A stretch of DNA of 64,000 nt from Nitrososphaerales archaeon. Its GTDB lineage: Archaea > Thermoproteota > Nitrososphaeria > Nitrososphaerales > UBA213. The stretch lies in the NCBI GenBank assembly GCA_965197925.1, contig CBDAOC010000020.1, forward strand, positions 1,001,497 through 1,065,496. Reading direction: 5' to 3'. The position numbers are program-made. Positions 33,001 to 39,000 of the stretch are shown here, piece after piece (the stretch's first letter is position 1; every line of letters begins with the position of its first letter).

Positions 33001-36000
33001 TGATGTTTTTTAATCCCTTTCATGGTGTTGGCCGGTCATAGATATTAATTCAATGAAGAAACATTTGAGATATTTTCCTTAAACTGTTTCAATGTTAGTC
33101 TCTGCATGTAAGTAAATTGTAATTAAAAAATAAATAAAAAACATTGTTGGACTGATGAAATTGGAAATGATAATTCCAAAGGTCATCTTCTGGACCTGTT
33201 ACTTATTGTTGTGGTATTAAATAATTAAGGCTTGGGCGTAATTTAGTTCGAAACGATAAGATCAGGTTCTAGTTTTTATTGTTGATATGTTTAGCCCAGA
33301 CTCGATACTTCTTCGCATATTATTTTTGATTGGTGTGATTCGGTCAAAACCTAATAGGAAAAGTAGACCATTCTACTATTCTCCTACAGTAATGGTGAGA
33401 CGCTTCATCGTTAGAGTATGGGTAAATACCAAGCAACAATGCTTTGCATGAATATTTTTCGATAGATATGCCATACAACAGGAAGGTAATGAGGGCATGT
33501 GGTTTGGATAGGTTGCCAGACAGAAGAACATTCGACAGAAGGTCAAGGCCGTATCAATTGACATAAGATCAAAGATAGGTGCTATGGGTATGCTCTTCAT
33601 AAAAGATGGGTTGGTAGACCCAGCCATAGTATCCGTTGATAGTTCATTGTTGAAAGCAAAGGGACATGTATGGCACAAATCTAGCATGAAGAAGAATGAA
33701 GTGCCACGCTCGGGTATAGATACAGATGCTCGATGGGGATTCAGCAGAACCAAGGGATGGATATTCGGATACAAACTGCATCTAGCATGTAGCACAGGTT
33801 CGTTGATAGTTCCATTATCAGCTGATTTCACAACAGCTAACATTACTGATAACAAGATGTATGAAAGCATAACATCTTCATTGCCTACAGGAATGGCAAG
33901 GTATGTTGTAGGAGATGAAGGATATGATGATCACAAGTTATGTGATTTCAGCAGGTATAGAGGGCATCCAGTATTCCCATTGGAAAGGTACAAGCATACT
34001 ACAGATAATAGACTGGCATTGCTGCAGTTCTATCAATCGGAATTTGGGCAGCATGTATATTCTCGGAGGAGCATAAGCGTTGAGCCATTGATAGAGCATA
34101 TGAAGGATGTATTTACCATAGATCCATTGCCAGTTAGAGGATTTGATAAAGCTAGGAGCATCGTTCTGATTTCTATATTGCTATACCAGCTGATGGTATA
34201 CTATAACTACTTGACAGGAAGACCATTAAGGGCATTGAAGCACATGTTGGGAAGTTAATCAATCAGATGCATCAAGTTATTTTTGTTATATGGAATAATG
34301 CCCATGCCTCACCTAGCTATCCAATTAAAAAGAGAAATTGGTTTGCAAGAAATATTTCTATTGCTGGAATGTATCATCTTACATCAAACTATGGTGAGTC
34401 TTATGCAAGGCCATTGATTATTATAGCATTAGCATTGCTTGGTTCAACGTTTTTCTTCCTTTCTGTAGGTACTGAGCGGTCAATTGAGGCTACTATTATA
34501 AGAAGTGTCAATTCATTCATTCCGTTTTTTAACTTTCCTGATGATGCTAAGCTAATTGATTATATTCTTGGGATGATATTGTTACCAATTGGCGCAACAT
34601 TGTTCATAGCCATGAGAAGAAAATTAGAACGGAGATTTAGACATTAGTAATAATAATTAGAAAGGATTTATTCAAATTTTCAAGAATCACTTGTCTGAGG
34701 GAATATTAGGTTTCGGTTCGTTGAAATCTAAATCATTTAATCTTCCGTCAATGTACATCATCAACTCTCTTGTCTTTATCTCGATTATGCTAGACCACTG
34801 ATGCTTTTTATTCTTATAGATAATCCTCATTCCAAGAAGTTTTCCAAGTTCGGTTAACAAAAGTTTTACAGCATTTGGTCTTAATCTAATGTTTCCTTCA
34901 TTAGTTTCTGAGAAATCTTTTTTCTTTATCAATCTCCTTAATGCTATTTTGGTTACAGTGATATCAACTAACCATCTGAAGGGTTCCATCAAGTCATAAA
35001 CCAATGATGCCTTATTGTTGTAGTTTTCATATATTCCCTTGATGAGATCGTCAAACTCATCTTATTCTACGAGTCATACTTCCACATAGAGCACAAAAGT
35101 ACCCTTTCCTGAAGCTATGACATGCAATCCTTGATCACCTGTAAGAACTATAGCATTATATTTTTGGGCAATATCTACCAACTGTTCGTCATTGGTTCTT
35201 GACTCATTGACAGATTCTTTCAAATAAGCGAGGCCGATTCTGCCTATTGATGCATCATCAGCAATTCTTTCAAGTTCTGCTTTCCCTCCTTGGTTATCAC
35301 ATTCTTTGGTTACTTCTGGATGCAAGAGGAAAGTAAAATTTTCAAAGAATGCTCCCTTATCAAGATCTTTAGAAATAGTGTCAGACAATATTACATTACT
35401 ATCTGGAAGGAGATGTCCATTGTAGTACAGTAATGTTGTATTTAGATCTCTAATAATCTCATTACAGGATATGCATCTACCTTCCATAAAACCTACAATA
35501 TTAGAAGTAACCCTTGCTGATTTTGCTATATTTCCACATGAAGGACACAATATACTTAATGTGGTTACTGACAGTTTACCTTCACGAAACAAGTTTTGCG
35601 AATCAGATGAAATCAGTTCATTTCTGATAGGTGGATCCTGCTTCTCAATTTTACCAGTATTACCATCTAACTCTCTCACGTTAGCGAAGGATTGTTTTAC
35701 AAACCAAGGCCATGGCTTGCCAGTCTTCTTCCATCTTGTCAACCACTTTATTGTCAAAGGGTCTCCGGCATTGCCGCTACCTACTGGACAATCTTCAAAT
35801 GCAACCCTTCTTCCAATGGCCTGAATAATCTTCTCTCTTTCTCCCTTGGCTATTATGCTAGCGAGCTTTGTTTCCAAATATCTGTCATCTGCTTTGCTTT
35901 GTACGCGGATGGTTGCTCCTCTTTTTTGAAGTGTGTCCAGAAATAACGAAATGTTTCTTCCAACACCATAATCATCTAATACAATGCTACAATTCCCCTC

Positions 36001-39000
36001 TGGAACTCTTCTTAGAAGATGTGAAATCATTCTCTGATAAACTAGATCCATGATCTTGTTAATGTTGAACCTATCAGTATGCCTTGGTAGAATCTTTTCT
36101 ATGATGAAAGATAGTCCTTTCAGTTTTAGATGATCTATTTCTAGATATAATTGATCCCAGTATTGTGCTTCTCTTTTTTTCTTGGTGTCTGTCACACTGA
36201 TTAAATTTTCTATTTCCTCTTTTAGGGATGCAGGAAATGCAACGCCAACTAACACGGAGTGCCCAATAAATTCCCCCTTACCCGTTTCATCTAACCCTAT
36301 AAGAAATTCACTTTTTGTTGTTTGAAAACCTGAACCAATTAAATCAGAAATCTTATTCCTTACTGCTAAAACATATTCATCATTAGTAGGATTACTAAAA
36401 AGTGTTCCCGTAGAATACTGGGTAAACACAGCTTTATTGATCCTTATTCTCCAAACTTCTTTTGATGTTTCAGAAATTGACGAATCCTCGATACCACAAT
36501 TTGTTATTAGTAATTTTTTAACTTCTTCTAATTTATTATCAGGAATATTCCATTTTCTTGGTTTTGGCTGCATGAGAACAATATATTAATTTCATCTTTA
36601 AGTCTTTCAAAGATAACAAATAATGTTCATTTGTTTTCTATACATTTTATGAAAATCCACAATGGTTCTAAATTCTTGATTTTGCAATAGCTTTGTTATG
36701 ATATGCGCTGGGTAACCATGGATTATACATTCATTAGTAATCGAACTCAGGTAAAGATTAGATTGCCAATCAATGGGGAACATCATCCAAGTATTATCTT
36801 CAACCAAAATCAACATTTGATTGATGGTATATGCTACAAAGTTGTTACTGCCAGGAAAGAATGTTCTCAAAACTACCAAATAATCCATTGATCTTAAGTG
36901 GTAAGAATAATGTAATTACCTTTGAAATTAAAACCTGCGTTTTATAACCTAAAATCATTTAAATATTCAGTCAAACATAAGTTGGCAGAATTCAAATGAC
37001 GAATGAGGTCAATGTAAGTAGAATCGAAGAAATTTTAAATGTTAAAGCAGAAGTCTTCTCAGAAGAGGGCGTTGTCAAGGCAAGCTTCCCGCGTACAGAC
37101 GTAAAGGTGACTATTGATAACTGGCCCATGAAACCTTTTATGGGTCTTGCTTCATGGGCTGCCTTTCAGAAAGGTGTGAAAGAAGGTATTGAAGTTATGG
37201 TCATGAGTGACCTAGTGCTCTTTGAAGATAAAGTGAATTCTGTTATGAGTGCAGCTCTGGAAACTTTGCAAGTGACCGCTTTACACAACCATTTCTTCTT
37301 TGACAATCCTAAAGTGTATTTCATGCACATTAGTGGTGAAAGTGAGCTCGATGCTTTTGCTTCAGGTATTAGAAAGGCCCCTGGATACTGTTAATGCAAT
37401 CAGGACAACTAACACCCAGCCACAAACATCATTCAAAGGACAACAGATCCCTATTGATAATGATATTGATGGCACAACTATTGAAACAATCCTCAGTGTT
37501 GGAGGTACGGCTAAAGATGGAATGTTCAAGGTTGTTATTGGACGCAAGACAAGTGCTTCATGTGGTTGTCTGGTGGGCAAAAATATGGGAGTAAATACTT
37601 GGGCCGCTTTTGCAGGTAACAATGACAACGCATTTGTAGATGGTGATTTTGCAGTCTTGGAAGGTGAACTGCAACCAGTACTCAAAGCTCTAAGAGCAGT
37701 TAGTATTAACATAGTTGCGATTCATAATCATATGACTTTTGAGCAGCCACGCATTATCTTTCTACATTACTGGGGCAAGGGCAAAGCAACTGATTTAGCT
37801 AAAGGTTTGAAGAGTGCTTTGGACAAAACTCACGATCCTGATCTATTAACAATGAAGTCTCTATGATCTTAGTAGTTTCCATTGAGCAGTATCCATACTA
37901 CCAGTTACTCACTTGAGAAAAATAACAACTACACATGATAAAGGGTGAGCGGTAAAATTGCGATTCTAATTTTATGAGCTATCGGACAAGTGGTGTAACA
38001 GAACCCTTTACACTCATATCGGTATCCATACCAATAACCTCCCAGTCAACAACTGGCTTCGCCGAATCTACTTTGAGTAAGAAGTACTGCTTGTCATCAG
38101 GCTGTAAAGGATGTTTGGAACCTGAAAATGTCACGGTGTTAAGGTCTCCCTCCTTCTCCCATTTATTGAATGCCTTGGCTGCCTTGATTGAATCTCCAAT
38201 AGTCAAGGTAAAAGCATCAATACTTACAGCGCTATCGCCTACATTTGTCAATCTTACGATTATTAGATCTTTGATTTGTTTGGCGTGCACTCTCACTTTT
38301 AATGGATCTGGCACCAATTTATTGGCGAGAATCTCGCTGGCCAAGCTCCGCCCTGCCTCCTGTCCTTCTTGATTGCTGAATTCGAAGTGGATGCCAGCAA
38401 AGATTCTGGCTCGTCCGGCTTCCTGAGCGGCATCGGAGAAGCTCTCAAAGGTTCGCGGACCGGCAATCGCATCATCTGCCTCGAAGGTAAAGCTCATGTC
38501 GTCCCAGCCAAAGAAGCCAGCAAGGATGGTCGAGCCAGCCCCAGCTAAGACGCTCTGTCCGGCGACGTGTTCTGGTGAGCCACCCTTGCTACCATTACGC
38601 GGCTCCCAGTTCGGGTCCTTCTCAGTATCCGGATTACCATCAGTGTCGGCGTTGCGGATAGCCGTCTGCGGCCGCCAGAAGAAGTAGACAAGCTTGTCAT
38701 CTGAATAAACCCTCACCGAATCGGCCATGGCCATGCCCAACAACGCGAAGAGTCGTGCGCTTTCCGACAAGGAGAGGTCCTGTTGGTCCGCAACTAGGAT
38801 GGCGATCTTGATCCACTCGCCTGGTGATCTGGAGCTACCTGAGCCACCCTTCCAGAACCGAAAGATCTCTTCCTTTTCCTGGTCCGGTATTGCTAGGTTA
38901 CCCAGTTCCTTCACTTCGTTGAATGCATTAGTATACTCCTCGCTATCCAATGGCGGTGGACCCGCACTTCGGTAAATGAGTGGGTCAGCTATAGCGAACG

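Follow-up and report, generated by a model that had tools for sequence, protein, structure and literature searches.

A mobile RNase H-zinc ribbon-PIN nuclease of archaea and bacteria as a candidate accessory defence RNase, with PIN-less relatives that appear domesticated

The window, by which we mean the whole 64,000-nucleotide stretch analysed from a Nitrososphaerales archaeon, carries on its reverse strand a gene (35074..36573) for a protein of 499 aa, P0001, whose four parts were recognized from the open reading frame, a homologue search and an AF2 model. All parts are encoded on the same strand: a TBP-like N-terminal domain that resembles the hybrid-binding domain of RNase H3 (aa 1-82; 36328..36573); a catalytic domain of RNase H2/H3 fold (aa 88-305; 35659..36312) with the residues D95-E96-D200-D229, a GKG motif followed by E101, and N268 where the junction tyrosine would be; a Cys4 zinc ribbon (C343, C346, C367 and C370; 35464..35547); and a PIN domain (aa 386-499; 35077..35418) with D391-E424-D462-D480. 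Positions 35001-38000 show 0 differing letters against contigs of two public runs from different studies, one of which may be the source sample. Five sigma-70 sites were found where 10.5 are expected, and a single TATA-like word lies 16 nt 5' of the P0001 start; it carries no weight as evidence.

Repeating the homologue search of the genome-wide survey's note gave the same 336 matches, and 118 of the best 120 cover at least 95% of the length at 42-100% identity. The four-part architecture and the two intact acidic sites claimed there held up well. All four parts are present in 119 of these 120 close homologues, in which D95, E96 and D200 of the RNase H site and D391 and E424 of the PIN site are invariant (120/120). 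D229 is kept in 115 and replaced by glutamate in the other five, D462 is found in 117 and D480 in 119. Among the ribbon cysteines, C343, C367 and C370 occur in 120/120 and C346 in 118/120; Zn_ribbon_3 matches weakly in 20 of 43 family members. The AF2 model (pLDDT 94, pTM 0.90) retrieved RNase H3 with Foldseek (4PY5, E 8e-14; residues 6-298 aligned at an rmsd of 4.2) as well as the PIN structures 3IX7, 3I8O, 5F4H and 1O4W (E 7e-5 to 6e-4); P0001 has both the fold and the four acidic residues that characterize the PIN superfamily. A HEPN domain is absent, other folds accounting for all 499 residues; a homodimer prediction score of 0.00 was given no weight in either direction. Both halves of the protein were shown to be under purifying selection: wherever it could be measured, dN/dS of related pairs was 0.00-0.23 for the RNase H part and the Zn-PIN part alike. 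As the note had reported, P0001 has no match in PADLOC 2.0 (2023 library) and 0 of 23 proteins reach any NCBIfam cut-off; among 15 family members one gave a weak PADLOC match (P0033, E 0.0075). The first ESM Atlas match, a cluster of 240 members labelled only RNase_HII, is probably the family's own.

Which kind of RNase H this is was judged from the GxG motif, the acidic 2'-OH reader (Ta E84) and the junction tyrosine (PMC4132731). The position equivalent to Ta E84, E101 after the GKG motif, is kept in 114/114 family rows, and the junction position holds Asn, Ser or Ala across the family (N268 in P0001) versus Tyr in 9/9 true archaeal RNase HII rows. P0001 thus has GKG and N268 in place of the RNase HII hallmarks, the GRG motif and the junction tyrosine; the equivalents of RNase H3 R32, Y43 and S47 are kept in the family. 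Judged by sequence, the specificity-setting residues are of the RNase H3 type, predicted to be hybrid-cutting, and not of the RNase H2 type. The family is not a canonical RNase HIII either: the fourth carboxylate in the wider set of 114 rows is Asp in 82 and Glu in 31, so that the DEDE site of RNase HIII is mostly lacking, and P0001 scores 49.3 bits with TIGR00716 (RNase HIII) against a cut-off of 161.2, the best of 22 members reaching 66.2. The catalytic body scores higher with TIGR00729 (archaeal RNase HII, 84.7 bits) than with rnhC (49.3), both below cut-off. One tree placed the family as sister to two Bacillota RNase HIII sequences (SH-aLRT 98); this placement was withdrawn after an AU test, in which the alternative joining archaeal RNase HII had a log-likelihood 6.1 higher (p-AU 0.62). 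The sequence at locus L069, first assigned to RNase HII, nests inside the family in the tree.

Directly downstream of the P0001 gene lies the 3' remnant of a cas1 gene (34690..35061, reverse strand; PF01867, E 7e-11, profile positions 221-281 of 283), the neighbour that had been pointed out before. It is most likely casposon debris: about 11 similar cas1 3' remnants are present in the window genome, and the piece is 30% identical to the casposon Cas1 of locus L140 and to the piece at L127. A CRISPR link at this locus was rejected, the cas1 piece being a repeated remnant. Upstream there is a faint second cas1-like remnant (36692..36849, forward strand; 74% over 164 nt to the cas1 remnant at C20:775097-775258, E 7e-18; weak by tblastx), and outside the system a high-copy IS element (DDE_Tnp_1; 33215..34321, forward strand) marks the region as variable. 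An intact casposon around the window gene was likewise rejected, only remnants being present, with no TIR match and no intact cas1 or PolB. At L140 and L141 the family gene lies between cas1 and a protein-primed PolB, and the element is bounded by perfect TIRs of 76/79 nt and by target duplications of 13 nt. These two loci are family 1 casposons by the criteria for that group, and the family gene is cargo of both intact elements. Cargo reported for such casposons includes OLD, HNH, NERD, Cas4 and HEPN nucleases (PMC6563490). The casposon link goes beyond the earlier note, as do a second clade and the PIN-less control described below.

We infer the defence role of the family from its neighbours, and the PIN-bearing copies could now be contrasted with PIN-less ones. 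RM, GmrSD, cas, DarTG or DUF499/DUF1156/SNF2 genes at most three ORFs away were counted as defence neighbours. L151, flagged as long through an opposite-strand match, was counted as PIN-less, and L037, L043, L065, L067, L072 and L131, in which the ORF picker missed the core, were left unclassified. In clade A, 16 of 31 PIN-bearing loci had defence neighbours versus 0 of 19 complete PIN-less loci (Fisher p 9e-5, a value inflated by kinship). The contrast in clade B, 6/19 versus 2/19, is weak and not significant (p 0.23). In nine loci the gene starts -11 to +9 nt from the stop of hsdS, an hsd fragment or a DUF1156 methylase gene; the order at L030 is hsdS-gene-hsdR, and at L017 the gene sits within a DUF1156-DUF499-SNF2 operon. 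Many long copies stand among ordinary genes (L012, L022, L024, L034 and L050), and the window copy has no defence neighbour. Our results favor the proposed defence link through the clade A control and the operon-level coupling at nine loci; clade B lends it little support and the window locus none. The survey's note had placed the family mostly beside RM or cas genes, which is too strong: roughly half of the PIN-bearing loci of clade A and a third of those of clade B have defence neighbours. An own-genome background rate, 2.6% at a distance of up to 4 kb from homologues of 37 defence-type neighbours, was set aside; it is an underestimate because the window's McrB-like gene was missed. No small upstream partner that could be an antitoxin recurs in neighbour clustering (ORFs of at least 70 aa).

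The scattered occurrence noted earlier was confirmed, the long, PIN-bearing form being found in 0/60 relatives and 2/61 Archaeoglobaceae, at odds with the near-universal single copy expected of an RNase HII in its lineage; Aquificaceae, previously named among the hosts, have no record in a set of 72 loci. P0001 is separate from the housekeeping enzyme, as had been stated: a 214-aa RNase HII is encoded at C20:694763-695404 of the window genome, and a second RNase HII-family match was found in 17 of 20 genomes hosting the family. Five copies of at least 85% identity occur in four different neighbourhoods, and no relative was found in IMG/VR (two patterns), PLSDB plasmids or INPHARED phages. PIN-less forms, which arose repeatedly, occur throughout two bacterial families (6/6 and 7/7), in contrast to the 2/61 of the long form. 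RNase HI was found in 3 of 25 PIN-less genomes versus 12 of 21 long-form genomes, which mirrors the reported mutual exclusion between RNase HI and RNase HIII (PMC1950709). Loci matching only the RNase H part, formerly counted as a weakness, rather belong to the same family, as members without a PIN, and appear domesticated, as an ordinary cellular RNase H in the place of RNase HI.

We hypothesize, with a probability of about 0.58, that the family is a mobile single-gene accessory defence RNase, a back-up to restriction-type systems, whose PIN-less half has repeatedly been domesticated as a housekeeping RNase H. According to this hypothesis the TBP-like and RNase H domains would bind RNA/DNA hybrids and cleave their RNA strand rather than act at single ribonucleotides, as the RNase H3 determinants suggest, and the ribbon-PIN tail might cut single-stranded RNA, a step in which we place less confidence. 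The PIN could attack either the RNA that leaves the hybrid or, when hybrids accumulate in infection, host RNA, and cleavage would leave the invader slowed or the cell stalled. Since no antitoxin gene recurs alongside, control would be intramolecular or exerted via the linked RM complex. Upon loss of the tail, the TBP-RNase H half may be retained as a housekeeping hybrid RNase H replacing RNase HI. More tentatively, the family could be a hybrid-sensing immune RNase, in which an active RNase H3-type module recognises hybrids tied to infection and then permits the PIN to act, as a fail-safe for RM systems of various kinds; this mobile gene would also be a repeated source of a fourth, unrecognised kind of housekeeping RNase H, possibly on an archaeal RNase HII scaffold independent of RNase HIII, that takes the place of RNase HI in WOR-3 and Dictyoglomota, among other lineages.

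A less likely alternative is a non-toxic mobile enzyme for R-loop and primer clean-up, in which the RNase H would nick the hybrid and leave the displaced RNA for the PIN to trim, aiding replication and transcription of the host or of the carrier (casposon or integrated element); mobility would explain why the gene gathers in defence islands. The PIN is nearer to processing- and repair-linked PINs than to VapC, and the lack of an antitoxin, the long copies among ordinary genes, the housekeeping-like PIN-less derivative and the casposon cargo all fit such an enzyme. However, stop-start coupling with hsdS or methylase genes at nine loci exceeds mere co-location in islands, RNase HI is already present in 12/21 long-form genomes, and fixation of the gene goes with loss of the tail, not with its retention.

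Direct restriction as a first line, in which invader hybrids (primers, reverse-transcription intermediates, R-loops) are destroyed without self-harm, would share the context evidence of the accessory back-up hypothesis and need no antitoxin, yet we consider it improbable: nothing points to a means of distinguishing hybrids of the invader from those of the host, and host RNase HI, which has the same chemistry, is not known to have any defence value. The mode itself has been proposed for RNase H/TBP-HEPN fusions (PMC3710099). It is very unlikely that the protein is simply a variant of RNase HIII whose tail is dispensable and non-catalytic and whose gene context is due to chance. Decayed tails do exist, and of the 31 long loci in clade A four are broken, in three cases between RNase H and PIN; however, both clades keep the acidic residues of the PIN nearly invariant, Zn-PIN dN/dS is 0.00-0.20, and distances in the RNase H part are correlated with those in the Zn-PIN part (rho 0.80, 60 proteins).

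Under the accessory defence hypothesis, archaea and deep-branching bacteria carry a testable single-gene defence candidate, masked by the annotation 'ribonuclease HII'. If the hypothesis is true, an active RNase H2/H3-fold enzyme would link prokaryotic immunity with RNA/DNA hybrids. The PIN-less forms are candidate hybrid-cutting RNases H in lineages without detected RNase HI or canonical RNase HIII, and would be a repeated natural case of one-domain loss turning a mobile gene into a housekeeping gene. Like the survey's note, we found no literature description of an RNase H-ribbon-PIN fusion, including in the text and supplements of PMC5499597 and PMC6563490; large prediction tables could list the family unnamed.

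Among known enzymes, RNase H3 (RNase HIII; T. ammonificans 4PY5, B. stearothermophilus 2D0A) shares the TBP-like N-domain, the RNase H2/H3 fold, GKG, the acidic E84 position and the missing junction tyrosine, whereas the family mostly has Asp as fourth carboxylate, adds a Cys4 ribbon and a PIN, and is mobile and patchy. The family differs from archaeal RNase HII in that the junction determinants GRG and Tyr are missing, N- and C-terminal domains are added, and a true RNase HII co-occurs with it. The closest sequence and fold matches to its PIN are the PINA ATPase, MJ1533 and TTHA0540, in which the partners of the PIN are ATPase-KH or membrane-TRAM parts and not an RNase H. The family PIN resembles PINA rather than VapC toxins, and no conserved antitoxin gene lies adjacent (ORFs of at least 70 aa) as in VapBC. 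Lactococcal AbiI is probably distinct as well: the passage that describes it mentions no PIN, and P0001 has no PADLOC match. RNase LS, RnlA and LsoA ('two-headed RNases'; PMC3710099, PMC8266594) are likewise anti-phage RNases with an effector joined to RNase H3-like TBP domains or an RNase H domain, but theirs are a HEPN effector, a caulimovirus-like RNase H and an antitoxin, RnlB, encoded alongside, none of which is found in the family. PrrC, other RM-embedded RNases and type I RM-coupled PIN genes (PMC5499597) resemble it in having the RNase gene inside an hsd operon or coupled to one, with no antitoxin; PrrC, however, is an ABC-ATPase-HEPN protein with an obligate RM link, whereas the link of the family is facultative and the type of RM system varies.

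The minus-strand gene at 35074-36573 encodes P0001, a protein of 499 aa, and it lies in a stretch (35001-38000) that contigs from two different studies (runs X3 and X5) span with 0 differing letters. The genome-wide survey's note had described a four-part nuclease with intact sites (an N-terminal domain as in RNase HIII, here TBP-like, an RNase H2/H3 catalytic domain, a Cys4 ribbon and a PIN domain), and our results uphold that architecture and also show selection on the gene. The homologue search again returned 336 matches, and 118 of the best 120 of these reached ≥95% coverage at 42-100% identity. 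All four parts were matched by profiles in 119 of the same 120, which speaks for completeness only since the profiles were made from 106 of them, and the catalytic and metal-binding residues were near-invariant. In the AF2 model (pLDDT 94, pTM 0.90), residues 1-305 match RNase H3 4PY5 and archaeal RNase HII, and the last 115 residues match PIN domains. Pfam recognized only RNase_HII in P0001, no NCBIfam family rose above cut-off and PADLOC gave no match; the genome also carries separate RNase HII and RNase HI-like genes. The host is apparently a Nitrososphaeria archaeon, as the Cenarchaeum genome of L033 belongs to its order. The survey was right to set P0001 outside NCBIfam and PADLOC families and apart from the housekeeping RNase HII.

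We sought the wider family by searching 1.84 billion representatives with a profile. This revealed, besides P0001's own clade A, a diverged clade B (~25-35% identity) that shares the four parts and has invariant sites, and the N-terminal domains of the two clades align at an HH probability of 96.6. The search also brought in forms with a decayed tail (ribbon plus PIN) and numerous PIN-less ones, 290-340 aa long. GTDB yielded 72 loci (31 with PIN, 36 without, 5 unclassified) and metagenomes 67 clade B loci, 20 of them with PIN. The long, PIN-bearing form is rare, being absent from all 60 relatives, confined to the host among 401 genomes of its phylum (≤3 candidates scored per genome) and present in 2 of 61 Archaeoglobaceae genomes. 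Five proteins (P0190, P0191, P0201, P0213 and P0224) form a divergent subgroup that has kept the RNase H site and tail length but in which the cysteines and the majority of the PIN acidic residues are lost. Locus L001 is titled "bacterium", yet contains archaeal-type RNA polymerase subunit genes (Rpb5-like, Rpb2).

In clade A, genomic context differs between the two forms. ORFs of ≥90 aa within three ORFs of the gene were scanned against Pfam, and a locus was positive if these included restriction-modification (RM), GmrSD, cas, DarTG or DUF499/DUF1156/SNF2-HNH genes, a list that is the survey's own with DarTG added and was not applied blind. In clade A, 16 of 31 long-form loci were positive with all 122 neighbours scanned (14/29 when three related Archaeoglobi are merged), versus 0 of 22 PIN-less loci (0/19 for complete genes), where the scan covered 107 of 183 neighbours at 22 of 36 loci, about one per syntenic group. 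The PIN-less neighbours were secA, PBP/rodA, gcvP, sucCD, rps15, queA and similar genes. At nine long loci the gene starts -11 to +9 nt from where hsdS, an hsd fragment or a DUF1156 methylase gene stops; it lies between hsdS and hsdR in L030 and within a DUF1156-DUF499-SNF2/NOV_C operon in L017. Clade B showed 6 of 19 long forms flanked by RM or OLD-like genes (70/74 neighbours scanned) versus 2 of 19 PIN-less loci that have McrBC or a PLD-type restriction nuclease alongside (77 of 84 neighbours scanned at 21 loci, which include two from clade A), a contrast with p 0.23; several further PIN-less clade B loci adjoin helicases, nucleases or E2/ThiF genes. On these counts (16/31 vs 0/19; 6/19 vs 2/19), the tail is strongly linked to defence context in clade A, and the link is unproven in clade B. 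The survey's statement that the family lies mostly beside RM or cas genes describes about half of clade A long loci and about a third of clade B ones; the window's copy has no defence neighbour.

Two other neighbourhoods were noted. In L149 (4304-5974), L161, L171 (1209-2879), L177, L187 and L192, a clade B gene that is PIN-less, or truncated by the contig, has a co-oriented DinG/XPD-like helicase directly upstream, and a divergent NERD nuclease gene is frequently present too; this may be a helicase-RNase H module for R-loops. In two unrelated hosts (L004:11704-13358 and L020:8153-9852) an IrrE-like peptidase and DUF4411 (PIN) pair adjoins the gene.

A tree was built from the RNase H domain only, with 120 rows once 38 of 158 had been dropped for being near-duplicates, incomplete or surplus outgroups. 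In both clades its PIN-less forms are nested among those that have a PIN. Tail state changes at least 19 times, with many branches weakly supported, and the starred branches alone force 4-6 changes (PIN and short labels). Since tailed members occur on the deepest branches of both clades, repeated loss would be the simpler reading of the direction. Three of four broken long loci are interrupted between RNase H and PIN, assembly errors being possible. PIN-less forms are family-wide in two bacterial families (6/6 and 7/7 genomes, overlapping partly with those that supplied the loci). A further RNase HII-family match was present in 25 of 25 PIN-less genomes (in four as split pieces only) and 17 of 20 long-form genomes, and RNase HI (PF00075 or PF13456) in 3/25 versus 12/21, counts drawn from incomplete MAGs and non-independent kin. 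The paucity of RNase HI in PIN-less hosts resembles the exclusion between RNase HI and HIII reported by Kochiwa et al. (PMC1950709). In the WOR-3-type genomes G088, G089, G090 and G094 the second match splits into separate pieces, which suggests an insertion in RNase HII. L069 (9992-10645) encodes a 217-aa RNase H domain without N-domain or tail that nests within the family; its genome also carries the PIN-less form L026.

The family is mobile. Loci L140 (3857-12877, 9.0 kb) and L141 (1617-9316, 7.7 kb) are intact family 1 casposons with the intact gene between cas1 and protein-primed PolB, perfect inverted repeats of 76 and 79 nt, respectively, and 13-nt target duplications. Their flanking target sequence is alike, and in L141 it is the 3' end of an NADH-dehydrogenase-like (Pyr_redox_2/NDH2_C) gene, not ef-2. 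Cas1 pieces lie immediately 5' of the gene in L127 and L133. Passages of Krupovic et al. (PMC6563490) give OLD, HNH, NERD, Cas4 and HEPN as cargo of such casposons, and a term search of those passages and the supplement yielded no RNase HII/HIII entry. The survey's cas1 fragment beside the window gene proved to be a cas1 3' remnant, accompanied by a faint second remnant and a high-copy IS. Casposon arrival is plausible for this copy because the genome holds ~11 cas1 3' remnants, 34-80% identical to the window piece. The genome also contains a full-length cas1 frame (C1:31609-32805), and a frameshifted casposon PolB (C18:187157-188757), and it is heavily loaded with IS elements, one of which is present as >100 copies or fragments. 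Elsewhere in the window, the segment at 8351-13307 comprises a 3' remnant of casposon PolB (8351-8521) and, after it, a McrB-like AAA_5/EVE gene (8912-11947) overlapped by a 475-aa partner without Pfam match; at 28894-32931 lies a cluster of genes, partly broken, whose repeats are RTX-type calcium-binding nonapeptides, with IS pieces interrupting it.

We favor, at a probability of roughly 0.58, an accessory defence RNase that would act as back-up to restriction-type systems. The H3-like half would engage RNA/DNA hybrids, a specificity we infer from sequence, and the ribbon-PIN tail would make another RNA cut, or one that arrests growth; its activation, its target and its toxicity are conjectured from analogous systems. 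The main rival, less probable, is a harmless mobile enzyme that cleans up R-loops; it is favoured by the PINA-like PIN domain and by the many long copies whose neighbours are ordinary genes.

The family may descend from RNase HIII, itself derived from bacterial HII according to passages of PMC3597702, or have an origin of its own, built on the body of an archaeal RNase HII; either fits a comparison with two RNase HIII sequences. Those passages describe no RNase H-PIN fusion of this type. The literature searched, including texts and supplements of PMC5499597 and PMC6563490, held no description of the RNase H-ribbon-PIN fusion, and the main text of bioRxiv 2025.01.08.631966 does not mention RNase H. 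AbiI is said in PMC13064643 to contain an RNase HII domain. The parts and logic of the fusion do have precedents. For the defence mechanism, our analogues are the RNase H/TBP-HEPN "two-headed RNases" and, separately, PrrC (PMC3710099), the RnlA TBP domains (PMC8266594), and PIN genes that lack an antitoxin and are coupled to type I RM (PMC5499597). The family is not a member of RNase LS, PrrC or VapBC; it would act like an RNase H3 joined to a PIN RNase, yet stands outside RNase HII and canonical RNase HIII.
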